The notes: generated by a model from the letters alone, not told the origin. Positions 1 through 12,337 are shown, counted from the first letter of the stretch. The stretch is 12,337 nucleotides of DNA from Acidobacteriota bacterium (GCA_036507075.1 DASXQR010000144.1:1-12337), one strand, 5' to 3'. A program made the numbers and translations.

Positions 1-581
1 ACCCGGTTGACCACAAACGCCTTCTTGGCCGCGTCGCCGGCGCTCTTGCGCTCAAAGTAATACCCGATGAGCAGGTAACTGCATAAGCCCACCCCTTCCC
101 ACCCCACAAACATCAGCAGGTAGTTGTCGGCCAGCACCAGCGTGAGCATCGCGAACATGAAAAGATTCAGGTAGGCGAAGAACCGATAGAAACCGTCGTC
201 ATCCCACATGTAACCGATCGCGTAGATGTGAATGAGCGATCCCACGCCCGTTACCACCAGAATCATTACCGCGGAAAGCGGATCGAGCTGAAAACCCCAG
301 AGTATCTGGAAATTAGCCAGGGCGCCGCCGGTTGTCCTCACCGCCAGGCCGGGGATCCAGGTGAACAGATCTTTCTTGAAAACATGCTCTGGGACACCGG
401 CCAACTGAATCACGGAGACCAGCGACAGCAGAAAGGCGGCCAACACTGCCGAAATGGAGACAAGCGACACGAATCGTCTGTCCAGCCTGGCTCCTTTGCT
501 TCTCACGACCAGACCCGCCAGCCCGTTGATTGCCGTCCCCAGGGCCGGAAGCAGCGGGATAATCCAGATTAGATTCAGCAT
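1..581 (-). CDS. nuoL: NADH-quinone oxidoreductase subunit L (5' part; runs off the window)
   Basis: Not in the ORF track because there is no stop in the window. Manual translation from ATG at 581 gives MLNLIWIIPLLPALGTAINGL...QLDPLSAVMILVVTGVGSLIHIYAIGYM...FFAYLNLFMFAMLTLVLADNYLLMFVGWEGVGLCSYLLIGYYF...AAKKAFVVNR, classic NuoL/ND5 motifs. Starts 7 nt after the nuoK stop. Confidence 0.96.
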   Translation of the reverse strand, partial: MLNLIWIIPLLPALGTAINGLAGLVVRSKGARLDRRFVSLVSISAVLAAFLLSLVSVIQLAGVPEHVFKKDLFTWIPGLAVRTTGGALANFQILWGFQLDPLSAVMILVVTGVGSLIHIYAIGYMWDDDGFYRFFAYLNLFMFAMLTLVLADNYLLMFVGWEGVGLCSYLLIGYYFERKSAGDAAKKAFVVNR

Positions 582-588
582 CCGGCAA

Positions 589-891
589 TCACCATTTCAA
601 CAGGTCAATTTCATCCACCTGCACGGTTTCCTTATTTCGAAAAAGCGCAATGATAATGCCCAGCCCGACGGCCGCTTCGGCGGCCGCAACGGTTATCACG
701 AATATGGCGAAGACCTGGCCCACCTCGTTTTTCAGCACGTCGGAAAATGCGACCAGGTTGATGTTGACCGAATTGAGTATCAACTCGATGGACATGAAGA
801 TGATCAGCACATTCCGGCGCGTCAAAACCCCCACTACGCCGATGGTAAAAACGATTGCTGCCAGTACTAAGTAATGGTTGGTGGTAATCAT
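589..891 (-). CDS. nuoK: NADH-quinone oxidoreductase subunit K (100 aa)
   Basis: [50 protein letters not shown]...[23 protein letters not shown], with both conserved Glu. Start moved from 978 to ATG 891 because the extra 29 codons are translated heptamer repeat. Confidence 0.96.
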
Positions 892-1084
892 TGAGTGTCG
901 AGTGTCGAATGACGAGTGTCGAATGACAAGTGGCGAGTGTGGAGTTCTGAATGATACATGGAGAGGTTCGAATGACAAATGACGGTTTTGTTACAATCTT
1001 GAAGTCCAGCTCCGTCACCCGAGACTCGCCATCCATCTCTCCTGATTCGAAACTCGACACTCGTCACCCGACACTCGACATTCA
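892..1084. repeat. Fold-back element of inverted heptamer arrays (GAGTGTC/GAATGAC ... GACACTC/GTCACCC) between nuoJ and nuoK
   Basis: Nine in-phase 7-mers at 893-955 and two more at 970-983. Ten in-phase reverse-oriented, partly degenerate 7-mers at 1014-1083. 892-922 pairs with 1054-1084 over 31 nt. Confidence 0.9.
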
Positions 1085-1606
1085 TCAGATTCTCTTCTTC
1101 GCCAACACGACCGCCCCAATAATCGCCACCAGTAGCAGTACGGAAGCGATTTCAAAGGGAAGCAGGTAGGTTGAATACAGCAACTCGCCCACCGCCTGGG
1201 TGTTCTGGGTTTTGTTCACCAGCACCGCCGGTGCTTGTCTGACGGGAAAGATCTCACCGCCCCGGCTAATGAACATACTCACTTCCAACGCCATCACGAT
1301 CGCCAGTATCAGGGCCACCTTCCACTGCCGAGTGCGGGCCGGAGCGTGCTCCATGCTGCGTACGCTGACCAGCATGATGACAAAGAGAAACAGCACCATG
1401 ATTCCGCCGACATAGAGCAGGATCTGAACGCCGGCCAGGAATTCCGCCTTAAGGCGAATGTAAAGACCTGCAAAACCGATTAAAGCTGAAATCAGATAGA
1501 GCGCGCTGCGGACAGCGTTTCGCGCCAGAATAACCATCAGTGACAGGCCGACAATGGTCGACGCCAGCAGATAAAAAACAATTTGGTCAAGTAAGGCTGG
1601 GCTCAT
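1085..1606 (-). CDS. nuoJ: NADH-quinone oxidoreductase subunit J
   Basis: 173 aa hydrophobic protein with RNAVRSALYL, AEFLAGVQILLYVGGIMVLFLFVIML and YLLPFEIASVLLLVAIIGAVVLA motifs; lies upstream of nuoK. Confidence 0.96.
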   Translation of the reverse strand: MSPALLDQIVFYLLASTIVGLSLMVILARNAVRSALYLISALIGFAGLYIRLKAEFLAGVQILLYVGGIMVLFLFVIMLVSVRSMEHAPARTRQWKVALILAIVMALEVSMFISRGGEIFPVRQAPAVLVNKTQNTQAVGELLYSTYLLPFEIASVLLLVAIIGAVVLAKKRI

Positions 1607-1611
1607 TTTTT

Positions 1612-1860
1612 CAATTGGTCAGTTGTCCGTTGTAGTCCGTTGTCCGTTGTCAGTGGTTACGGATTACGAGTTACGGATTACGAGTTACGGGTTACAACGG
1701 GTTACGGGTTGTCGGTTTCGGATCGCGAATTCCAAATTGAGGGTTTGGATAAACATTTTCAATTCTCAACCCTGAAAGTTCACAGTCCGCCAACCCGCAA
1801 CTTGTAACTCGGAAACCCGAAACCTTCAACGACGGACAACGGACCACTGACAACGGACTA
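1612..1860. repeat. Composite fold-back element with two nested heptamer families between nuoH and nuoJ
   Basis: Outer units CCGTTGT/CAGTTGT/CAGTGGT (about 1620-1657) are mirrored by AACGGAC/CACTGAC (about 1828-1858). There is a perfect 16-bp IR at 1642-1657/1843-1858. Inner units TTACGGA/TTACGAG/TTACGGG (1657-1708, degenerate in-phase to about 1750) are mirrored by AACCCGC/AACTTGT/AACTCGG/AACCCGA (about 1792-1827). Confidence 0.9.
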
Positions 1861-2883
1861 GATAAATCTCAACAACACCGCCCCGGTGATCATCACGTTG
1901 GCCATCGCAACCGGCAACAGGACCTTCCAGCCAATATTCATCAACTGGTCAAATCGAAAACGGGGCAAAGTGCCTCTTATCCAAATAAAAATATAAAGAA
2001 AGATAAATACTTTGGTCACAAACCAGAGCGGGGCCGGAATCAAGTCCAGGAACGCAAGGCTGCTCACATTGGGAAATGGCCGCAGCCAGCCGCCAAAAAA
2101 CAGCGTCACGGCCAGCGATGAAACGGTGATCATATTGGCGTATTCAGCGATAAAGAACAGCGAAAAACGAAAGCCGCTGTACTCGGTGTGAAAGCCGCCC
2201 ACCAGTTCGCTCTCCGCTTCCGGTAAATCAAACGGCAGACGGTTTGTTTCCGCCATCCCGCAAATGTAGTAAATAAGGAAAGAGATCGGCTGGACAAAGA
2301 AGAACCACACCCCCATCTGCTTCTGCTTTTCCACCACTTCGACCAGGGATAAGGTGTTGGCCAGCAGCAGCACTCCGATGATCCCAAAGCCCATTGCCAC
2401 TTCGTAGCTGACCATCTGCGCGGAAGATCGCAGGGCGCCCAGCAGCGGATACTTACTGTTTGATGCCCACCCTCCCAAGATGATTCCGAGCACTCCCACC
2501 GAGGAAACCGCCAGCACGAACAGCAATGCGATGTTCACGTCGGTGACATAACCGCCGGTGCCCCACATCGAATCGGGGGGACCGAAGGGGATAACGGCAA
2601 AGACAACGAAGGCGGGAATCAGTGAAATCGCCGGAGCGATGCTAAACAGAACCTTGTCCGCCTTCAGCGGGATCACGTCTTCCTTGATGATGAATTTCAA
2701 TCCGTCGGCGATCGGCTGCAGCAAGCCGTGCCAGCCTACCCGCATCGGCCCCAGTCGATGCTGCATGCGGGCGATCAATTTCCTTTCCAGCAAAGTCAGA
2801 TACGCGATCCCTCCGGACAGAATCCCCACGATAACCGCGATCTTGACAAGCGGGACGACGACGAACTTGATCAGGATTTCCAT
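1858..2883 (-). CDS. nuoH: NADH-quinone oxidoreductase subunit H
   Basis: 341 aa with LLERKLIARMQHRLGPMRVG, GLLQPIADGLK, GGWASNSKYPLLGALRSSAQMVSYE, AETNRLPFDLPEAESELVGGFHTEYSG and RGTLPRFRFDQLM. Its ATG overlaps the nuoD stop (TAATG). Confidence 0.98.
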   Translation of the reverse strand: MEILIKFVVVPLVKIAVIVGILSGGIAYLTLLERKLIARMQHRLGPMRVGWHGLLQPIADGLKFIIKEDVIPLKADKVLFSIAPAISLIPAFVVFAVIPFGPPDSMWGTGGYVTDVNIALLFVLAVSSVGVLGIILGGWASNSKYPLLGALRSSAQMVSYEVAMGFGIIGVLLLANTLSLVEVVEKQKQMGVWFFFVQPISFLIYYICGMAETNRLPFDLPEAESELVGGFHTEYSGFRFSLFFIAEYANMITVSSLAVTLFFGGWLRPFPNVSSLAFLDLIPAPLWFVTKVFIFLYIFIWIRGTLPRFRFDQLMNIGWKVLLPVAMANVMITGAVLLRFI

Positions 2884-4031
2884 TATCGGTCGATTTCCCC
2901 CAGGACAATATCCAGGGTTCCAATCAGCGCGACCACATCTGCTACCAGGTGTCCTTTTACCAGCGTCCGCAGCGCCTGCAAATTAACAAAGGAGGGAGGC
3001 CGGATGCGGCAGCGGTACGGGCTGGTCTTTCCTTCGCTCACGATGTAATAACCCAGTTCACCCTTGGGAGCTTCCACGGAATGGTAATACTCGCCCACTG
3101 GAGGCTTGATCACCCGCGGTGATTTTCCCCGAATCGGGCCGGGAGGCATACGCGAAATGCACTGCTGGATAATGCGATTGCTCTGACGCATCTCCTCGAC
3201 GCGGACCAGATAACGGTCGTAGGTGTCACCCTTCTCGCCCAGCGGGATATCAAAGTCGAAATCCGCGTAAGCTGCATACGGGCGGGCCCTGCGAATGTCG
3301 TAGTTGACGCCCGAGCCTCGCAGAGCAGGCCCGGTCAATCCCAGGTTGATCGCGTCAGGTCCGGAAATAACACCGACGTTTTTCGTGCGCTCGAGCCAGA
3401 TGCGATTATTGGTCAGCAGACCCTCGTACTCGTCAACGTGCGCGTCAAAGCCGTCGGAGAATTTCCGGCACGCATCCAAAAACCCCAGCGGAAGGTCAAG
3501 CTGCAGTCCGCCGATCCGAAAGGCGTGAATGGTGAGACGCGCGCCGAAAAGCGCCTCCATCAATTTGAGAATCTCTTCCCGTTCGCGGAACGCATACAGG
3601 AAGACGGTCATGGCGCCGATGTCCAGAGCGTGCGTCGCCAGCCAGAGCAGATGACTTGCGATCCGCTGAAATTCGGTCATCATGGTCCGGATGTACTGCG
3701 CCCGCGGCGGCATTTCCACGCCGAGCATTTTCTCGACGCATTCCACATATCCCAGGTTATTGGAAACGGCGGCAATATAGTCGGTCCGGTCAAAGTAAGG
3801 CACGGCGCCCACGTAGGTGCGGTTTTCGACGATTTTCTCTGTGCCGCGGTGGAGATACCCGATTACACAATCGGCGTCGATCACGCGCTCGCCGTCGATC
3901 TTCAACACCACGCGCAACACCCCGTGCGTGGACGGATGCTGCGGCCCCATGTTGATGGTGATCTGGTTGGCATCGAGGATGGTCTCCCCCACGGGACCAA
4001 AGATGTCGTCTTCCATCGCGTTCTTATTCAT
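2883..4031 (-). CDS. nuoD: NADH-quinone oxidoreductase subunit D
   Basis: [36 protein letters not shown] and C-terminal [12 protein letters not shown]; no NiFe CxxC motifs. An alternative start at ATG 4016 is possible. Confidence 0.98.
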
Positions 4032-4033
4032 TG

Positions 4034-4888
4034 CTATTTCCTGATCTGCAAATGACGCCGGATCCAGTCCTCATCCTGCTTGCGAAGGTCGTAATCCTTG
4101 CGAAGAGGAAATCCGATCCAGTCATAGGGCAGCAGGATCCTCCGTGGATCCGGGTGCCCCGAGAACACGATTCCGAACATGTCGTAAACCTCGCGCTCCA
4201 GCCAGTCGGCGGTCTTCCACACGGGAGTGACAGAGGCGATCTGCTCATTCACGCCCAGGTTGCATCGCAATCGCACCTGCTGGTTCAGCCTGATGGAACA
4301 AAGCTGGTAGATTACGACAAAACGTTTCTCTCTTTCCGGGTAGTCCAGCGCGGTAAGGTCTTCAAGCAGATCAAAGTCCGATTCCGGATCTTCCTTCAGA
4401 AACTCGCACACAGACAAAATCTGCCCGGCGTCGACTGTGAAGATCTTCTGATTGAGGTAAGACTGGGCGGACTGTACCGCATCCGGCACTGCCTTGCTCA
4501 GACGCAGCACAAGGGGGTCCTGCGAAATGTCCAGATAAGAGGGGGCCTCAGCTTTCTCCACATTCCTGGCAGGCACCGCTTCGGCTGCCTTGGCGGCGAC
4601 CCGCGCCGGCGCAGGCGGAGCAGCGGCAGGAGCGGAGGCGGATGCTTGAGGCGCCGCCGCGCCGGGCTTGACCCATACCTTCGGCTGCTTTTTCTGCTTT
4701 TCTCCCTCAACAGGGGCCGCAGGCGTCTCTGGCTCCTGCGTGGAAGCAGCCGGAGAAGCAGCCGGCGTCTCAGCCAGAGGCGGGGCGGCACTGGCGCCGG
4801 GCTTGACCCAGATCTTGGGTTGCTTCTTCGGCTTTTCTCCCGAAGAAGTGGGCTCTTGATCCTTTGATTTGTTTTTTTCGTCGCTCAT
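4034..4888 (-). CDS. nuoC: NADH-quinone oxidoreductase subunit C with a long low-complexity N-terminal extension
   Basis: C-terminal domain has [18 protein letters not shown] and [40 protein letters not shown]. The first ~115 aa are Ala/Pro/Lys/Glu-rich with a duplicated motif. Confidence 0.95.
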
Positions 4889-4896
4889 TTACCCAC

Positions 4897-5091
4897 GTAG
4901 AGACGCGACATGCCGCGTCTTGGCTGCAATGCAGCGCCGTCAAGATGGAGCCGTAGTGAAAAATCCCCGTTCCACCGGCACAGGGCCGGTGGGGACGCGA
5001 TCTGAAATGTCCAAACTCTAGAGCGCCGCTTTGTAGCGCTCCGGACGCGACATGTCGCGTCCAACTCAGACGCGGCATGCCGCGTCTCTAC
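4897..5091. mobile_element. REPIN-like element: inverted pair of GTAG-type REP palindromes with internal hairpins
   Basis: GTAG-AGACGCGACATGCCGCGTCT at 4897-4920 and the inverted copy AGACGCGGCATGCCGCGTCT-CTAC at 5068-5091 (23/24 identical). An internal perfect palindrome GGACGCGACATGTCGCGTCC lies at 5043-5062. Confidence 0.75.
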
Positions 5092-5137
5092 ATTAAGGCG
5101 GAAACGGTAAGACGGAAAAAGTTCTAAAACTCCCCGC

Positions 5138-5494
5138 TCACGCCCACTCCAGGGCACCCTTTTTCCAGACGTATATGTAGCCGATCACCAGGATCAATAT
5201 GAAGATCAGCATTTCGATAAAGCCAAACAATGCAAGTTTCCGGAACAGGACGGCCCACGGGAACAGGAAGATCGTCTCCACGTCAAAGACAACAAAAAGG
5301 ATCGCGATGATGTAATAGCGGATCGAATAACGTTCCCGAGCATCACCTTCGGGATCGACTCCGCATTCGTAAGGCATGAGCTTTTCCTTGAACGGATTGA
5401 AGGGACGCAGTAATCGCCCGACAGTGAGGCCTACTACCGGAAGCGTGATGGCGACCAGCACGAACAACAAAATCGGAAGGTAAGCGACCAGCAT
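5138..5494 (-). CDS. nuoA: NADH-quinone oxidoreductase subunit A
   Basis: 118 aa with KLMPYECGVDP, RYYIIAILFVVFDVETIFLFPWA and GYIYVWKKGALEW. Confidence 0.98.
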   Translation of the reverse strand: MLVAYLPILLFVLVAITLPVVGLTVGRLLRPFNPFKEKLMPYECGVDPEGDARERYSIRYYIIAILFVVFDVETIFLFPWAVLFRKLALFGFIEMLIFILILVIGYIYVWKKGALEWA

Positions 5495-5542
5495 AAGTCC
5501 GTCCAGAATCTCAAAAAAACGGAAATAATTCCAAAGCGCTAC

Positions 5543-5571
5543 ATGTTATGGAAAGTGCTTAACGATTGCAA
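5543..5571 (-). promoter_or_regulatory. Putative sigma70-type promoter for the nuo operon
   Basis: Minus strand reads TTGCAA (5571-5566), 17-nt spacer, TAACAT (5548-5543), about 50 nt upstream of the nuoA ATG. Confidence 0.5.
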
Positions 5572-5657
5572 GCCGACGCAACCGGCCGCGGATTACGCAG
5601 ACTAACACAGATAATATCGCGGACCGCGCAAGTAGAGGATGCTATGCTGAAAAGCGC

Positions 5658-7418
5658 ATGCCGGTGGCTGGCACACGCAACATGCACCATCCAATACGAG
5701 CCTTCATCTTTTTCCTTGCAGTGGCCGCAAGCATTGCAGGCACTCTCAGTTTCATCACCGGCACACCACGAGCGCGACTCAACGTGCAGCAAATTATCTG
5801 GCTGCTTTTCATTTTTGCCCTGGCTGCGCTTCTTGCCTCTCGCCGGCGCGAAGCCGTTGTCACTTCGGGTTCGAATCATCCCATCGGAACCGTCTTTCAA
5901 ACTGACGCCAACCTAAAGAAATGGATATGGATCGGTCTGGCACTGATATTGGGTTTTTCTGTGTACTGGTCCGCGCTGGATCTGGGTTTTCTGAGCGATG
6001 ACTTTGCTCACGTACGTTATGCGCGGGGGCCGGCATCCTCCAGGCTCTGGTCGGAACTGACGGAAGGCCAGGCTAAGACATTCTTCAGACCGCTCGGGTT
6101 TGCAACTTTGTTTCTAGATTACCGGCTGTGGAGCGAATGGCCGGAGGGATATCACCTGTCAAATCTGATGCTTCATCTGATTTCAGTGGCCGGTGTCTTC
6201 CTGCTCTGCGGTTGCCTGGGACTTTCGTGGCGCGAAGCCGGAATTGGCGCTTCGGTTTTTGCCGTCCTCCCTGTTCAAGTGGAAGCCGTCGGCTGGATCG
6301 CCGCCAGATTCGATTTGATGGCAACGGTGCTGATGGTTTGGGCGATGGTGCTTTATGCCTCCTTCCGGAGAAGGAGGAGGGCCGGGTTTTACTTCGGCTC
6401 CCTGCTTTGCTTCCTGGCCGCCCTGCTGTCAAAGGAGTGCGCGTTCATTTTTCCATTCGTTGTGGCGCTCTACGAATGGCTGGGATTTGGCAGTCATTCC
6501 ATTGAGGGAATTGCCGTGTTCGCCCGCCAGGACTCTGTGCAAACGAAAGAAAGCAATTTGAGAATTGCGCCGGAATATCGTCAAGGCAAACGCAGCTCTG
6601 CTAACCGGCAGAAAGGTACGGGCGTCATTCCGGTTGCCGGCTTCGCCGTTGTGGCACTGATTGTTTTCTTGTACCGGTGGAAGATCCTTGGCGGCATCGG
6701 AGGTTATCCGGCATCGACGGGAGGGCCGGCAACGCTCGATATCGGTTGGCGAACCGCCTTCGCTTTGCTTGTTCGGGCCCCGGCGCAAATGCTGTTTGCC
6801 TGCAACTGGCAACAGCCTGCCGGCATTGGAATCGTTCTTATAACATCGGTGACAGCCGGCATCCTTCTTCTCCTTCCATTGGTGACAGAACCGTCGGTAC
6901 TGCACAAGCGAGTGATGTTGCTGGGCATTGGATGGATCTTTTTGACTTTGCTGCCGGCTCACCCATTGCTGATGATCGGCTCGGGGCTGACTAATTCTCG
7001 CATCCTGTATCCTGGATCGATCGGGATGGCATTACTCCTGGCCGCGCTGGTGGGAGCACTCCCAAATGCGCGGCAACAAATCATCGTCACGCCGGCGCTT
7101 TTGTTCGCGCTCTGTTCGGGGACCTTTCACAACCTGCAAGCCTGGCAATGGACGAATGCAGCGTTGAACAATACGATTGCCAAACTACCGCAAATCTGTG
7201 GGGTAATTCCACGGAATGCGGAAATTCAAACCATCGGTTTTCCCGCGACGCTGCGTGGTATTCATTTTTTTGCGCCAGAGCTCCGGGGGGAGATCCTGAA
7301 ATTTGCTCTCCGGCGCGAGGATATCAAGGTGAAACAAGACGCCGTCGGCAATGCCGGCGTAGTGTTGAAGTGGGTTAATGCGGATCCGCCTCGCGTTGAG
7401 TGCGAGCCCCTTCGCTAG
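5658..7418 (+). CDS. Polytopic membrane protein, GT-C fold glycosyltransferase-like (PMT/ArnT/TMTC-type membrane domain)
   Basis: Many hydrophobic segments. An acidic pair follows a TM helix (LGFLSDDF), then FFRPLG, YHLSNLMLH, EAVGWIAARFDLM and ALLSKE, a motif series typical of GT-C/TMTC-like proteins. No TPRs seen. Exact start uncertain. Confidence 0.7.
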   Translation: MPVAGTRNMHHPIRAFIFFLAVAASIAGTLSFITGTPRARLNVQQIIWLLFIFALAALLASRRREAVVTSGSNHPIGTVFQTDANLKKWIWIGLALILGFSVYWSALDLGFLSDDFAHVRYARGPASSRLWSELTEGQAKTFFRPLGFATLFLDYRLWSEWPEGYHLSNLMLHLISVAGVFLLCGCLGLSWREAGIGASVFAVLPVQVEAVGWIAARFDLMATVLMVWAMVLYASFRRRRRAGFYFGSLLCFLAALLSKECAFIFPFVVALYEWLGFGSHSIEGIAVFARQDSVQTKESNLRIAPEYRQGKRSSANRQKGTGVIPVAGFAVVALIVFLYRWKILGGIGGYPASTGGPATLDIGWRTAFALLVRAPAQMLFACNWQQPAGIGIVLITSVTAGILLLLPLVTEPSVLHKRVMLLGIGWIFLTLLPAHPLLMIGSGLTNSRILYPGSIGMALLLAALVGALPNARQQIIVTPALLFALCSGTFHNLQAWQWTNAALNNTIAKLPQICGVIPRNAEIQTIGFPATLRGIHFFAPELRGEILKFALRREDIKVKQDAVGNAGVVLKWVNADPPRVECEPLR

Positions 7419-7430
7419 CACGGGATTATT

Positions 7431-7511
7431 CAAAAACATTAACCGCGAAGAACGCCAAGAGCGCCAAGCTGGTCTTAGCGTTCTTGGGGCTCTTTGCGGT
7501 TAATGTTTTTG
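7431..7511. repeat. 38-bp-stem hairpin with 9-mer units (CGCCAAGAR) between convergent genes; possible bidirectional terminator
   Basis: Arms are 7431-7468 and 7474-7511 with loop CTGGT. The outer 16 bp are perfect (CAAAAACATTAACCGC/GCGGTTAATGTTTTTG), and each strand ends in a T run. Confidence 0.85.
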
Positions 7512-8437
7512 CTCAGGATTCCCCTGAAATACTCGATCGTCTTCCTCAGCCCTTCCTCCAGCGGCATCCGTGGCTCCCAGCGCAGTTCCCGACGGGCCAG
7601 AGAGATATCAGGCCGCCGCCGGGCGGGATCGTCGGGTGGAAGCGCCAGATGACGGATCCTTGATTTTGAGGCGGTGAGCTTTAGGACCAGATGGGCCAGC
7701 TCACGAATGGTAAATTCGTCGGGATTTCCCAGATTCACAGGTCCTATCAATGTGTTCTGATCCATCAGCGCGACCAGCCCGGCAACCAGATCGTCGACGT
7801 AGCAGAAGGATCGCGTCTGATCCCCTTCTCCGTAGAGCGTCAAATCTTCACCTTTCAGCGCCTGCACCACGAAATTGCTTATCACCCGACCGTCTTCCAC
7901 AGACATGTTAGGACCGTAGGTGTTAAAAATCCGGGCTATTCTGATGTCGACCTTATTCTGCCGGTGATAATCCATCATCAAGGTTTCAGCCAGGCGCTTC
8001 CCTTCGTCGTAACAACTGCGCACTCCGACGGGATTGACGTTGCCCCAGTAGCTTTCCTTCTGGGGATGCTCACTTGGATCGCCATAAACCTCCGACGTCG
8101 ACGCCTGCAGAATTCGAGCCTTTGTTCTCTTCGCCAGGCCGAGCATGTTAATCGTGCCCATCACGCTGGTCTTCACCGTCTTTACCGGATTGTACTGGTA
8201 ATGAATGGGCGACGCCGGGCAGGCAAGGTTATAGATCTGCTCCACTTCCAGCAGAATCGGTTCGATGATGTCGTGACGAATCAACTCGAACCGGGGAGTG
8301 CCCAGGAATTGCTCCACATTGCGCTTCGAACCCGAGAAGAAATTGTCCAGGCACAGGACGTCATCTCCGCGAGCCAGCAGCTTGCCGCAAAGATGACTGC
8401 CCAGAAAGCCGGCACCGCCGGTCACCAGAATTCGCAT
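7475..8437 (-). CDS. UDP-glucuronate decarboxylase (UDP-xylose synthase) family extended SDR
   Basis: [72 protein letters not shown] and [10 protein letters not shown]. Start reassigned to ATG 8437 because the 22 upstream codons come from a hairpin repeat. Confidence 0.93.
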
Positions 8438-8445
8438 AAGTATAT

Positions 8446-8506
8446 TTTGTGTCCTCCGTGTCTTTGTGGTGAGGAAAAACGACCACAAAGGCACAAAGGG
8501 CACAAA
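8446..8506. repeat. 25-bp-stem hairpin of 8/9-mer units (GCACAAAG[G]) between galE and the decarboxylase gene
   Basis: TTTGTGTCCTCCGTGTCTTTGTGGT (8446-8470) pairs with ACCACAAAGGCACAAAGGGCACAAA (8482-8506) around an 11-nt loop. Confidence 0.85.
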
Positions 8507-8512
8507 GGGAAG

Positions 8513-9484
8513 TCAGTACCTTGGATTTTGAAACCACTTCCACGCTGTTTTGATCACGGTTTCAATGTCGGAATGCCTGGCCGTCCAGCCAAGCTCGCGA
8601 CATGCCAGCTCCGCGTTCGCAACCAGCACGGCGGGATCGCCTGGGCGCCGGGGCCCAATGTTGTATTTCACTCTTCTGCCCGTGATCTTTTGGGCCGCCG
8701 TTATCACTTCGTGAACGCTTAGGCCGTGTCCAACGCCAAGATTGTAAGCCGCGGTTTCCCCTCCGCTGAGAAGCTTTTCGAACGCGGCGATGTGAGCCTC
8801 TGCCAGATCTTCCACATGGACATAATCCCGAACGCACGTGCCGTCGGGAGTTTCGTAATCATTTCCGAACACGGTCAATTCAAAGTTGTCGCCGGACGCT
8901 CTGAGCACCAGCGGTATCAGATGCGTTTCCGGATCATGTGACTCGCCCAGCTTTCCGTCAAGCGAGGCGCCGCAAGCGTTGAAGTAGCGCAAAAAAACGG
9001 ATTTCATCCCGTAGGCCTGATCGTAGGCGGCCAGTATCCTCTCCAGCATCCGCTTGCTCTCTCCATAAGGGTTGATCGGCTGCTGGGGATGCTTCTCCGT
9101 GATCGGCACAAAATGCGGATTTCCGTAGGTCGCACAGGTGCTGGAGAGCACAAAGCGCAGGACACCGTGGCGCAACATGGCGGCAAACAGCTTCATGCCG
9201 TTGCCCACATTGTCTTCGAAGTATTTTTGCGGGTTTATTACAGATTCGCCCACATAGCAGTGGGACGCGAAATGCATCACCCCGTCAAAGCGCCCGCAGG
9301 CGAAGACGTCATCGAGAGCCTTTTCGTCGGCCAGGTCCATCACCACCAGATCGGCCGGCGCAGCCTGTCGATGACCGGCGGACAGGTTGTCGACAACCGT
9401 GACTGTATGTTGGTGCTCCCGCAATCTGGCCGAGCAGACACTTCCAATGTATCCGGCGCCCCCGGTCACCAGAATCCGTGCCAT
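8513..9484 (-). CDS. galE: UDP-glucose 4-epimerase
   Basis: [22 protein letters not shown], catalytic YGESK (YxxxK), LRYFNACGA, GESHDPETHLIP, TPDGTCVRDYVHVEDLA and RRPGDP. Confidence 0.95.
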   Translation of the reverse strand: MARILVTGGAGYIGSVCSARLREHQHTVTVVDNLSAGHRQAAPADLVVMDLADEKALDDVFACGRFDGVMHFASHCYVGESVINPQKYFEDNVGNGMKLFAAMLRHGVLRFVLSSTCATYGNPHFVPITEKHPQQPINPYGESKRMLERILAAYDQAYGMKSVFLRYFNACGASLDGKLGESHDPETHLIPLVLRASGDNFELTVFGNDYETPDGTCVRDYVHVEDLAEAHIAAFEKLLSGGETAAYNLGVGHGLSVHEVITAAQKITGRRVKYNIGPRRPGDPAVLVANAELACRELGWTARHSDIETVIKTAWKWFQNPRY

Positions 9485-9488
9485 GGAC

Positions 9489-9866
9489 CTACAATGTTCC
9501 TACCAGACTGCTGGCCTTAGCTTCAAACTTGAATGTGTAATGGTAGCCGGGAAAGTCGACCGGCACGGTATACTTCGTGTCTATTTTTACTTCCCCGCCC
9601 AGGACTCTGGATCGCGTAATCGTGATATCGCTCTCGCCCATCTGGAAATTTCGGAAGCGCGCCATCAGCAGGATGTCCTGCTTGACCTTTTCATCGGTCC
9701 AGAAATTCGCTCCCGCCTTGCTGGCTTCCCGCCCAAGATCTTCTTCGAAATTCATCTTGTCGATGTATACGGGAATGATTTTGAACCCAACGTAGCCGAG
9801 GGCAACAGCGAGCAAAATGACGAAGAGACATCCGATCCGTCCTTCACCTTTCTGGCTGGAAATCAT
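9489..9866 (-). CDS. Small single-TM exported protein, DUF4845-like / pilin-like N-terminus
   Basis: 125 aa with QKGEG followed by a hydrophobic helix ending FKIIPVYID. GGAGG RBS lies 6 nt before the ATG. It sits downstream of lepA, as DUF4845 genes do in many bacteria. Confidence 0.65.
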   Translation of the reverse strand: MISSQKGEGRIGCLFVILLAVALGYVGFKIIPVYIDKMNFEEDLGREASKAGANFWTDEKVKQDILLMARFRNFQMGESDITITRSRVLGGEVKIDTKYTVPVDFPGYHYTFKFEAKASSLVGTL

Positions 9867-9907: not shown

Positions 9908-11704
9908 CTACTCAACCTTCAATACCGCCAGAAAAGCTTCCTGCGGGATTTCCACGCGGCCTACCATCTTCATCCGCTTCTTTCCCTCTTTCTGCTTCTC
10001 CAGCAGCTTCCGTTTGCGCGTTATATCACCGCCATAGCATTTGGCGATCACATTTTTTTTCAACGGTTTAACGGTCTGACGCGCAATAACCTTGTTACCG
10101 ATCGCGGCCTGTATGGCAACCTCGAACAACTGCCTGGGGATCAGTTCCTTCATTTTATCAACCAGCGCCCTTCCTTTATGGTAAGCATTATCACGATGCA
10201 CGATTAATGACAGGGCGTCCACCGGCTCCCCGTTTACCAGGATGTCGAGCCGGACCAGGTCTGCATCCTGATAGGCCGAAAAATGATAATCCAGCGAAGC
10301 GTAACCACGCGATACGCTTTTGAGCTTGTCGTAGAAATCCAGGACGATCTCATTTAACGGCACCTCGTATGTTACCAGCACCCTGCCGGTCGCCACGTAC
10401 TCGAATCCCTTTTGCACGCCGCGGCGCTCCTCGCACAGCTTCAGGATCCCCCCCACGTATTCGTCGGGCGTTATGATCATTGCGGTAATCATCGGTTCTT
10501 CAAACTTCTCGATCATGTGGGATTCAGGCAGTTTTGCGGGGCTGTCGATTTCCAGCACTTCTCCGGCCGTGCTGGTGATGCGGTAGCGCACACCTGGAGC
10601 GGTGGTCACCAGTTCGAGGTCGAATTCGCGCTCCAGCCGCGCCTGAATGATCTCCATGTGAAGCAGGCCCAGAAAACCGCAGCGAAAGCCAAATCCGAGC
10701 GCTGTGGAAGTTTCCGGCTCATAGAAGAAAGATGAGTCGTTCAGCCGCAGTTTCTCAAGCGCGTCGCGCAAGTCTTCGTATTTTGCGGAATCGATCGGGT
10801 ACAAACCGGAGAAAACCATCGGCTTGATTTCCTGAAACCCGGGAAATGGAGAATCAGTAGGTTTAACGGCGGCGGTGATGGTGTCGCCGATTTTCGTGTC
10901 CGACACCTGCTTGATATTGGCAATCACAAATCCCACTTCCCCGACGGACAACTTTTCGATCGGCTCAAACTTGGGCGTCAATACGCCCACCTGCTCCACT
11001 TCGTACACTTTCTGGTTGTGCATCAGTTGAATCTTCATCTTCGGTGCAATGGTGCCGTCAAATACCCGGACCAACACGATCACGCCTCGATAAACGTCAA
11101 ACCAGGAATCAAAGATCAAAGCCTTAAGGGGTTTTTCGTAATCGCCCGCCGGCGGCGGGATTCTCTTCACCACCGCTTCCAGAATCTCGCGCACTCCCAG
11201 GCCGGCTTTTGCCGATGCCAGCAGGCAGTCGTCGCCACTCAGGCCAATAATATTTTCTATCTGGTCCTTGATCCGATCCGGTTCAGCGCTTGGCAGATCG
11301 ATTTTGTTCAGCACCGGGATGATTTCGAGATTGTGATCCAGGGCGAGATACGTGTTTGCCAAAGTCTGTGCTTCCACCCCCTGTGATGCATCCACCACGA
11401 GCAATGCTCCTTCACAGGCTGACAAACTGCGCGACACTTCGTAAGAAAAGTCCACATGGCCCGGTGTATCGATCAGGTTAAGGACGTAGGTTTCGCCGTC
11501 GTCCGCCTTGTAATTCAACCGGACGGCGTGGGCCTTGATGGTAATGCCGCGCTCACGCTCCAGATCCATATCATCCAGCACTTGATCGGACATTTCCCGG
11601 GAGCTGAGCGCTCCGGTGATCTCCAGGATCCGATCGGCAAGGGTCGACTTTCCATGATCGATGTGAGCGATGATTGAAAAATTACGGATGAACCTGGAAT
11701 TCAT
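9908..11704 (-). CDS. lepA: Translation elongation factor 4 (LepA)
   Basis: [69 protein letters not shown] and [25 protein letters not shown]. Confidence 0.99.
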
Positions 11705-11809: not shown

Positions 11810-11951
11810 ACCACGGAGGCACAGCGGACACAGGATTGTCCGTTGTCAGTTGCCCGTTGTCAGTTGTCACTCCTGACGACCGGTTTGCAAGAACGACTGA
11901 CAAAGGACCACAGGCAACGGACGATTCCGTGTCCGCTGTGTAACCTGTTGG
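11810..11951. repeat. Nested fold-back element: heptamer arrays inside 8/9-mer arms
   Basis: Outer CACAGCGGACAC (11820-11831) pairs perfectly with GTGTCCGCTGTG (11929-11940). The inner TTGTCCG/TTGTCAG array at 11835-11867 pairs with 11893-11925. Confidence 0.85.
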
Positions 11952-12077
11952 CAACTTCTTGTTTTTTTGACAAGATTTTTCAGAAACGATAAAAGCCGAT
12001 TACGTCAACGTGACGCCTGTCCAAATTAGTTCTTGGGATTGCGAGAAGGCGATTAGTTAAATAGCCGTGGATTACCA

Positions 12078-12337
12078 GCCCGCCGCCTTTTGGCGGGCGC
12101 CAGCCTGTAGCCCACGGCGCAGCGAAGCGCAGCCGTGGGAATTGCGGCTCTCTCATAAGATAAAGCCCGCCCGCTTTTTCAGGCGGGCGACAGCCCCCGC
12201 ACCGACAATTCGTTTAATCCTTGTCCGCTCTCTTTTCTCCAAAGAATCGACTGCTGTCGCCCGCCCTAAAAAAAACGGCGGGCTTTATCGAGTAGAATGT
12301 TCCTGTTCCCACGGCTCCGCTTCGCTGCGCCGTGGGC
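12078..12337. mobile_element. Multi-hairpin inverted-repeat element (REPIN/MITE-like, GTAG-associated), truncated by the window end
   Basis: 12110-12141 matches the reverse complement of 12306-12337 at 31/32 nt, with GTAG at 12107-12110. A second IR pair is 12159-12194/12253-12289. GCCCGCC-loop-GGCGGGC hairpins occur three times (about 12078, 12165, 12259). Confidence 0.75.

Follow-up and report, generated by a model that had tools for sequence, protein, structure and literature searches.

The window, by which we mean the whole stretch of 12,337 nucleotides analysed here, comes from an Acidobacteriota bacterium (GCA_036507075.1 DASXQR010000144.1:1-12337) and carries genes of a respiratory complex I (nuo) operon together with two epimerase-type genes. 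Names were assigned via Pfam:

3-581, minus strand: nuoL
589-891, minus strand: nuoK, whose start (MITTNHYL) is kept in relatives
1085-1606, minus strand: nuoJ, whose start region (M..DQIVFY) is kept in the related genome G001
1858-2883, minus strand: nuoH
2883-4031, minus strand: nuoD
4034-4888, minus strand: nuoC
5138-5494, minus strand: nuoA
7475-8437, minus strand: uxs-like NAD-dependent epimerase/dehydratase gene
8513-9484, minus strand: galE-like NAD-dependent epimerase gene

The reading frame at 9489-9866 (ORF125) matches no Pfam family even at E 0.1, and the label "DUF4845-like" that the original prediction had given it was not confirmed. The uninterrupted junctions are as tight as had been claimed, with gaps of 7 nt (nuoK/L), -1 nt (nuoD/H), 2 nt (nuoC/D) and 4 nt (ORF125/galE-like).

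Three further junctions, nuoJ/nuoK, nuoH/nuoJ and galE-like/uxs-like, are filled by inverted arrays of 7-9 nt units, and are split by them as the original prediction had described. Borders were defined from the sequence, by local alignment of each gap against its own reverse complement:

892..1084, minus strand: nuoJ/nuoK insert, a 193 nt hairpin with tandem heptamer arms
1625..1858, minus strand: nuoH/nuoJ insert, a 234 nt hairpin
8446..8506, minus strand: galE-like/uxs-like insert, a 61 nt hairpin of 8/9-mers (CCTTTGTG... / ...CACAAAG)

The nuoJ/nuoK insert, with a 5' arm of GTCGAGT type and a 3' arm of ACTCGAC type, starts just past the nuoJ TGA and its last base adjoins the nuoK ATG (0/0 nt from stop and AUG). 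The nuoH/nuoJ insert, built of outer GTCCGTT/GTCAGTG and inner GGTTACG units, begins on the final base of the nuoH TAG and ends 18 nt from the nuoJ ATG (0/18 nt), the 18 nt between them (1607-1624) being unpaired and A-rich. The galE-like/uxs-like insert has the TGA 6 nt upstream and the ATG 8 nt downstream (6/8 nt), and shows a GT-first arm order that is rare for its dialect (6/82 9-mer elements). The closeness of the stem bases to stop and next AUG thus stands as originally described. As RNA the three inserts fold with MFE values of -86.7 kcal/mol (z -6.4), -101.8 (z -7.5) and -30.8 (z -5.8), respectively, and for each of them 0/200 dinucleotide shuffles fold as well. Rfam recognizes no family in the inserts; its sole match in the window, at 11628-11690, scores weakly and well under threshold. 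A promoter scan placed a sigma-70-like site in the loop of the nuoJ/nuoK insert (978-951, minus strand), to which we give no weight because such sites are scarcer in the window than in shuffled versions of it (4 vs 6.0).

The genes downstream of the inserts, nuoK, nuoJ and uxs, have no well-spaced Shine-Dalgarno (SD) sequence, in agreement with the earlier observation; the uxs leader has a GGAGG, 15 nt from the ATG. This is unremarkable by itself, since only 25-30% of called genes in this genome have an SD-like 4-5-mer at 3-12 nt, compared with 9% of random in-gene positions.

The window contains other hairpins as well:

4897..5091, minus strand: nuoA/nuoC insert of another type, 195 nt, with 24 nt terminal inverted repeats (96%)
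7431..7511, minus strand: 9-mer hairpin of the CGCCAAGAA dialect with 38 nt arms (87%), in the convergent gap at the 3' end of the uxs-like gene
11820..11940, no strand assigned: heptamer hairpin of the GTCCGTT/GTCAGTT dialect with 48 nt arms (81%), in the upstream region of lepA

The nuoA/nuoC junction is a fourth split junction, overlooked in the original prediction; its insert lies 46 nt past the nuoA stop and 8 nt ahead of the nuoC ATG, has non-tandem arms, and ends in termini built from GACGCGGCATGCCGCGTC palindromes. The 5' arm of the 7431-7511 hairpin encodes roughly the final 10 residues of the uxs-like gene as well as its TAA, and alignments with the uxs-like proteins of relatives end at residues 304-312 of 320.

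The three junction arrays are true insertions, as the orthologous sites are tight and empty in relatives. At nuoH/J the two genes overlap as ATGA in G001 (NuoJ 75% identical) and are separated by a gap of 34 nt in G002; the nuoJ/K gap measures -4 to 41 nt in 12/15 relatives' loci; and for galE-like/uxs-like, G021 has a gap of 5 nt and G015 (unpublished genome) one of -1 nt. The empty sites sought by the original prediction are therefore present for all three junctions. Contigs from four soil-metagenome DNA runs covering 589-8515 contained no clean empty-site allele; they break at the repeats, their joints are further copies of these arms with different loops, and the arrays show indels of 1-3 nt at positions 1631-1634 and 1693-1696. 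The same junctions are struck more than once: the galE-like/uxs-like junction of G001 carries a different dialect and nuoK/L in G007 has a similar flush heptamer hairpin, which could reflect a site preference.

These inserts belong to one genome-wide family with a shared architecture and many dialects, as had been proposed. The 4395 gaps contained 2129 inverted-repeat elements, of which 464 were strictly tandem-armed; 1470 TRF rows have period 7 (tandem heptanucleotide arrays), and 3030/4016 array regions of period 6-10 are mostly intergenic. (Pairing of TRF arrays was superseded as a way of finding elements, having caught just 2/5 tandem-armed hairpins of the window.) The variation of units between loci noted in the window holds throughout the genome, with 1270 distinct canonical units in 4328 arrays of period 6-10. 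The units in the window are among the common dialects, namely AACGGAC (120 arrays), AACGCCAAG (107), AAAGGCAC (68), AACCCGT (57) and AACTGAC (52). Arm polarity is nearly fixed within each unit length, 7-mer elements being GT-first in 149 cases and AC-first in 11, and 9-mer elements AC-first in 64 and GT-first in 6.

Several known repeat families invite comparison. STRR are intergenic heptamer repeats of heterocystous cyanobacteria; the tandem heptanucleotide arrays found here are likewise intergenic and likewise differ by indels in steps of 7 nt. REP/BIME/REPIN sequences of gamma-proteobacteria and the present family are both extragenic palindromes of hundreds of copies that frequently lie within operons and a short way 3' of a stop codon, without target duplication. 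However, REPs share a common family consensus and come with a RAYT transposase, whereas each locus here has its own unit (1270 canonical units/4328 arrays), so that the single consensus of REP/REPIN is lacking. The target-site duplication of a MITE or classical transposon derivative is lacking too, the longest shared flank word in 449 elements being no different from the shuffled control (at least 5 nt in 5.6% vs 5.0%, p 0.41). Among heptamer arrays, GGGAATC arrays are described in Xanthomonas and Nostoc (PMC4692102), and TAACTGA arrays, which the window's CAACTGAC unit resembles, are described in PMC4679880 as lying directly 5' of starts, inside operons, in Beggiatoaceae, where they apparently replace the SD. 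These published heptamer arrays are mainly direct repeats with one dominant unit per genome; the arrays here are instead inverted pairs, come in 1270 unit variants, and are stop-proximal rather than start-proximal.

The closest relatives of the inserts are cassettes that carry a small gene of the TIGR02436/PF05635 ("23S rRNA intervening-sequence protein", Avd-like) or TIGR04256 (GxxExxY) family. The arm architecture is the same, with two tandem arrays of a 6-10 nt unit that are reverse complements of each other; the cassettes carry a gene whereas the window copies have no ORF and sit in mRNA junctions, not in rRNA. In this genome, 5/7 TIGR02436 loci have inverted array arms (alignment score at least 38), and GT-first 7-mer arms flank TIGR02436 genes. 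The 7-mer dialects of the window match or resemble units beside the four-helix-bundle genes. TIGR04256 genes at C83 and C152 have the same CGCCAAGAA and CACAAAG arms as the window hairpins 7431-7511 and 8446-8506, the gene at C83 being flanked by the arms of the former. Dialect and arm order agree with those of cargo-bearing copies except at 8446-8506, where the order is reversed. A link to both gene families had been put forward in the original prediction; it is real here, with 9-mer/8-mer dialects and arm order flanking GxxExxY genes, and supports the idea that the inserts are cargo-less copies. A tblastn search with 8 cargo proteins of this genome found neither a small four-helix-bundle/GxxExxY ORF in the window loops nor a cargo remnant in the window inserts at E below 1, as is expected of a gene-less form. 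PF05635 has been likened to the DGR accessory protein Avd (PMC10053308), and among the papers that the literature search turned up, none was found to describe such arms in connection with these cassettes.

[quoted passage not shown] Intervening sequences in 23S rRNA have stems that RNase III cuts, and the window inserts are not such sequences themselves, lying between protein-coding genes and not in a 23S rRNA helix. If the stems were nevertheless cut in mRNA, the operon transcript would be split and downstream cistrons would be left with very short leaders or none, which would fit the identical cassette architecture, the missing SD downstream of the inserts, and the length of the stems (in both large inserts the MFE structure has tens of pairs). 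However, pairing shows no sense-strand bias and a cut within the nuo operon would uncouple subunits needed at fixed ratios; we regard such processing as very unlikely.

Genome-wide, stem bases hug stop codons, with a median stop-to-element distance of 13 nt in co-directional and 10 nt in convergent gaps. They do not hug starts, the median element-to-start distance being 42 nt in co-directional gaps (26 nt if the most upstream possible start is used, start positions being uncertain under our crude custom gene caller) and 87 nt in divergent gaps. The expectation that stem bases would abut both codons therefore stood for stops and failed for starts. Consistently, among tandem-armed, single-element co-directional gaps 195 elements are nearer the stop and 65 nearer the start (p 3e-16), and only 22/263 such gaps combine at most 6 nt to the stop with at most 13 nt to the start. 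Borders based on MFE structures (2614 gaps) were dropped because any gap folds into a spanning domain, so that non-repeat controls and divergent gaps looked equally "flush".

Occupancy does not depend on gap size beyond the smallest leftover spacers. With a leftover of at most 0, 1-10 and 11-20 nt it is 2%, 16% and 38%, respectively, and between 21 and 2000 nt it stays level at 47-52%, which indicates that insertion is non-random per base and leaves room for some targeting of gene 3' ends. Tight co-directional junctions are occupied in just 51/725 cases (7%), compared with about 50% of gaps generally. The proposal that the family targets gene junctions is thus not upheld as worded, since about half of all gaps in every orientation are occupied and tight co-directional ones are under-occupied; contact with both stop and AUG is what any insertion into a junction of 0-20 nt would produce. 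The depletion in tight junctions could be due to a lack of room or target instead of selection.

Stop proximity in co-directional and convergent gaps, and an occupancy that peaks in convergent gaps (60-73% at small leftover), might suggest 3' hairpins that protect upstream mRNA from 3' exonucleases or modulate termination on the upstream cistron, tuning the expression of operon segments. In E. coli, REP/BIME elements make upstream mRNA more stable and can influence translation when they lie no more than about 15 nt from a stop codon. Yet 45-55% of divergent gaps are filled although they have no 3' end to protect, no strand-specific pairing signature is seen, and avoidance of promoters and 5' leaders would explain stop proximity equally well, so we find this role highly doubtful. 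Still less probable, to the point of being hardly credible, is that the elements are terminators or attenuators breaking the operons. The 7431-7511 hairpin ends in GTTTTTG between convergent genes, as a terminator might. However, 0/19 terminator-like sites fall in the three junction inserts, and U-runs (5 or more T in 8) trail just 15-23% of elements, in divergent gaps alike. The G+C-rich stem followed by a U-tract that defines intrinsic terminators is not what these elements display, and its lack is compatible with read-through across the inserts.

The original prediction went further and proposed that, by folding out of the mRNA, the elements let terminating ribosomes reinitiate, with tandem units allowing pairing in many registers. 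Several points are in accord with selection for such a function. The window geometry (0/0, 0/18 and 6/8 nt) fits coupling, as does the flush hairpin at nuoK/L in G007. Moreover, an SD is found at 3/56 starts with an element within 13 nt, against 240/792 uninterrupted tight junctions (Fisher p 1e-5), which implies that those genes must initiate in another way; the Beggiatoaceae arrays (PMC4679880) offer a precedent. In the two long inserts the MFE structure accounts for just 0.6% and 0.06% of the ensemble, in keeping with many alternative registers. However, every indirect signature of selection at the RNA level that we computed (mismatch bias, flush fold, looped-out SD and ortholog geometry) is absent. 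G·U mismatches on the transcribed strand are not in excess over A·C (445/856, 0.52, p 0.26); flush elements are no more stably folded than the rest (-0.477 vs -0.478 kcal/mol per nt, p 0.68); the sense strand is the more stable in only 141/254 elements; and looping out the element brings an SD-like motif into place in 5/60 cases, which equals background. In addition, the orthologous nuoJ/K insert ends about 49 nt ahead of the ATG in G001, not flush, and has decayed in G002 to a 91 nt remnant with a weak fold (-20 kcal/mol). Together with the under-occupied tight junctions and the large family-wide distance to starts, these results make an adaptive coupling module unlikely.

Thus, we consider it fairly probable that the inserts are tolerated selfish hairpins, gene-less copies of a genome-wide, stop-proximal family of palindromic cassettes, whose flush geometry is a by-product. 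This reading builds on the insertion, family membership, cargo link, stop proximity and tight-junction depletion that are observed here. The cassettes have two mirror-image arms, each a tandem array of a 6-10 nt unit specific to the locus; their full copies carry a small TIGR02436 four-helix-bundle or TIGR04256 GxxExxY gene, and in this genome they settle or survive just 3' of stop codons. An insert in a tight operon junction necessarily contacts the stop and the next AUG, and the flush geometry would then follow from landing there and not from family-wide targeting or design. Insertions into tight junctions would mostly be selected against, and the few that persist are probably tolerated through the behaviour of a long stem in mRNA, which would keep the stop near the next start. 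If a ribosome terminates 0-6 nt from the stem base, it would have to melt the basal pairs, and this may free the A/C-rich 3' strand adjoining the AUG, a coupling of the RNA-unfolding type.

Such coupling, with the ribosome unwinding the stem base, is a plausible candidate. In the RNA-unfolding model, as a review describes it (PMC12548453), a hairpin reaching from the upstream stop to near the downstream start, as in phage f1 genes VII/IX and the MS2 coat/lysis genes, must be opened by the terminating ribosome, and in the three inserts, too, a structure spans the distance from stop to start (0/0, 0/18 and 6/8 nt). The phage structures are short, native and demonstrated by mutation, whereas here the hairpin is a predicted one, in a foreign insert of 60-234 nt. 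One could go a step further and regard the cassettes as portable, SD-independent intercistronic linkers, in which the terminating ribosome would open the stem base and the fixed polarity would always put an A/C-rich heptamer array (CAACGGAC, CAACUGAC, ACUCGAC) directly 5' of the AUG as an unstructured landing pad, like the role proposed for TAACTGA arrays in Beggiatoaceae. We think this distinctly unlikely; if true, a selfish family would serve as a general Shine-Dalgarno substitute in low-SD phyla.

In summary, half of the intergenic gaps in this genome carry such hairpins, some of them inside the operon for respiratory complex I. A perfect stem of 200 nt separating two cistrons of an obligate complex should disturb stoichiometric expression, so that its tolerance poses a concrete, testable question on how the helicase action of ribosomes and coupling work. 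The repeat class is widespread, barely described and tied to genes for Avd-like "23S IVS proteins", and its stop proximity, flat 50% occupancy, tight-junction depletion, polarity and lack of target duplication narrow the possible mechanism of spread and the selection acting on it. In genome annotation, such elements account for a low coding density, for contigs that break and for spurious N- or C-terminal extensions, one case being roughly the final 10 residues of the uxs-like protein.

The uninterrupted junctions of these operons are tight, with spacings of 7, -1, 2 and 4 nt (nuoK/L, nuoD/H, nuoC/D and ORF 9489-9866/galE-like, respectively), and inverted arrays with units of 7-9 nt interrupt three further ones, as the original prediction had stated on both counts. 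The borders of the inserts were drawn by sequence only, as the gap's best local alignment to its own reverse complement, and the elements and the two sugar epimerase/dehydratase genes assigned by Pfam are as follows.

892-1084, minus strand: nuoJ/K insert, from the first base past the stop to the last base ahead of the ATG
1625-1858, minus strand: nuoH/J insert, from the stop's last base to 18 nt short of the ATG
8446-8506, minus strand: galE-like/uxs-like hairpin, 6 nt from the stop and 8 nt from the ATG
gap 4889-5137, minus strand: nuoA/nuoC element, 195 nt, non-tandem, with 24 nt terminal inverted repeats
7475-8437, minus strand: uxs-like NAD-dependent sugar epimerase/dehydratase
8513-9484, minus strand: galE-like NAD-dependent sugar epimerase/dehydratase

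None of 200 shuffles folded as well as any of the three arrays (z = -6.4 for nuoJ/K, -7.5 for nuoH/J and -5.8 for galE-like/uxs-like). The nuoA/nuoC element, whose terminal repeats are built of GACGCGGCATGCCGCGTC palindromes and which ends 8 nt ahead of the nuoC ATG, is a fourth split junction that had been overlooked. In addition, the uxs-like gene owes approximately its last 10 codons and its TAA (7475-7511) to one arm of a 9-mer hairpin (7431-7511), and alignment of the 320-residue protein to those of relatives ends at residues 304-312; a repeat element has here rewritten a C-terminus.

The window corresponds to contig C144, one of 233 in a 6.1 Mb draft genome that breaks at repeats. Its own end (12077-12337) carries nested G+C-rich inverted repeats of a different type, for example 12110-12141 with 12306-12337 (97% complementary). 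Pfam identifies nuoA, C, D, H, J, K and L (the last partial) on the minus strand, together with lepA, and finds no family, even at E 0.1, for ORF 5658-7418 (plus strand, 586 aa) or ORF 9489-9866 (minus strand, 125 aa). Between nuoA and nuoC, nuoB is absent; both matches to PF01058 (NuoB-type) in the genome lie on contig C17. NuoC (4034-4888) bears a Pro/Ala/Lys-rich N-terminal extension of ~130 residues with an internal duplication (GEKxKKQPKxWVKPGA twice), behind which lies a DNA repeat (4659-4706 versus 4794-4841, 88% identity).

Comparison with orthologous loci of 15 relatives revealed empty or tight sites, which shows that the window inserts are insertions. In G001 and G002, both relatives of the same family, nuoH and nuoJ overlap (ATGA) and lie 34 nt apart, respectively; in 12 more distant loci a stretch of 477-642 nt separates them, and the one that was checked encodes a 153 aa, 2x[4Fe-4S] NuoI-like protein (L013 1033-1494). 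At this position nuoI is absent here (1607-1857) and in the two same-family relatives. Of the 15 loci, 12 have a nuoJ/K spacing between -4 and 41 nt and one more has 75 nt, while G001 holds 211 nt with related GAATGAC units, stopping ~49 nt short of the ATG, and G002 a 91 nt remnant in which the long stem no longer forms. Since the coding ends are conserved, the nuoJ and nuoK start assignments are sound. The galE-like/uxs-like spacing is 5 nt in G021, -1 nt in G015 (an unpublished genome) and 248 nt in G001, in a different dialect (repeat-unit variant). In G007, a genome that falls in the same class but is unrelated, the nuoK/nuoL junction (L021 2111-2199) holds an 87 nt heptamer hairpin of GGAAGGCT/CTCTTCCA units, its stem 5 nt past the stop and 10 nt ahead of the ATG.

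Genome-wide positions do not bear out the proposal that such elements target gene junctions. We scanned 4395 gaps among 4735 genes from a purpose-built hexamer-based caller, which is crude and reproduces the window genes, with starts less reliable elsewhere; the thresholds for inverted repeats were chosen arbitrarily, and the non-tandem class includes many tandem-armed copies. Gaps of every kind hold at least one inverted repeat (co-directional 1149/2982, convergent 423/696, divergent 349/717). The expected closeness to stops was recovered, that to starts was not: the median distance of tandem-armed elements from the stop is 13 nt in co-directional and 10 nt in convergent gaps, and from the start 42 nt in co-directional and 87 nt in divergent gaps, the co-directional figure still being 26 nt when the most upstream possible start is assumed. 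In single-element co-directional gaps the stop was nearer in 195 cases and the start in 65 (p 3e-16), and only 22 of 263 combined a stop within 6 nt with a start within 13 nt. Occupancy was 2% for residual spacers of 0 nt or less, 16% at 1-10 nt, 38% at 11-20 nt and flat at 47-52% for longer ones up to 2 kb. Because occupancy is flat with spacer size, insertion is non-random per base, with about one element for each gene end. Rather than being preferred, tight junctions are thus depleted, and the flush geometry in the window is inevitable for any insert within a tight junction.

All computed tests for RNA-level selection were negative. In stem transition mismatches on the transcribed strand, G·U is as frequent as A·C (445/856, p 0.26); being flush brings no gain in folding (-0.477 versus -0.478 kcal/mol per nt for the other elements); the two strands fold almost equally well (sense more stable in 141 of 254); and, among the orthologous nuoJ/K inserts, that of G001 is not flush with the ATG and that of G002 has lost its long stem. 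It is therefore rather improbable that the inserts are an adaptive coupling module, even though heptamer arrays directly 5' of starts within Beggiatoaceae operons are described as apparent Shine-Dalgarno (SD) substitutes (PMC4679880). Looping the element out brings an SD-like motif to proper spacing in 5 of 60 cases, matching the 9% background, versus 30% at uninterrupted tight junctions, and where an element lies within 13 nt of a gene, SD frequency drops to background level (3/56). As only 25-30% of genes genome-wide use an SD, its lack at nuoK, nuoJ and uxs is unremarkable. IVS-like processing of the mRNA by RNase III and REP-like 3' protection both seem unlikely. That the elements are transcription terminators is very unlikely: no U-tract enrichment was found at elements, and no terminator-like site inside the three inserts.

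The elements belong to an abundant repeat family. TRF arrays of period 7, 8 and 9 number 1470, 1287 and 927, and 4328 arrays contain 1270 distinct canonical units, the window's among the common ones, in line with the expectation that units differ between loci. The suggested link of such arms to TIGR02436 and TIGR04256 genes is also borne out in this genome, which has eight TIGR02436 matches at seven loci, five of them bracketed by inverted 6-8-mer arrays, and six TIGR04256 matches. Those on contigs C83 and C152 are flanked by CGCCAAGAA and CACAAAG arms, which these cassettes share with the window hairpins at 7431-7511 and 8446-8506. PF05635 has been compared to the DGR protein Avd (PMC10053308). 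A literature search found no published description of TIGR02436 or TIGR04256 genes enclosed in inverted-array cassettes. Among heptamer hairpins, 149 begin with the G/T-rich arm and 11 with the A/C-rich arm; among 9-mer hairpins, 64 begin with the A/C-rich arm and 6 with the G/T-rich arm, and this order agrees with the cargo-bearing copies. Since a palindrome is identical on both strands, arm polarity is a property of the element itself, perhaps a consequence of the way its arms are produced. No target-site duplication was detected in 449 elements, and neither a cargo remnant nor an Rfam match in the three inserts.

A long stem in an operon junction would hold stop and start close together, and a ribosome ending 0-6 nt from its base would have to melt it, as expected under the RNA-unfolding model of translational coupling (PMC12548453). 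The inserts are most likely tolerated, gene-less selfish cassettes that persist beside stop codons.
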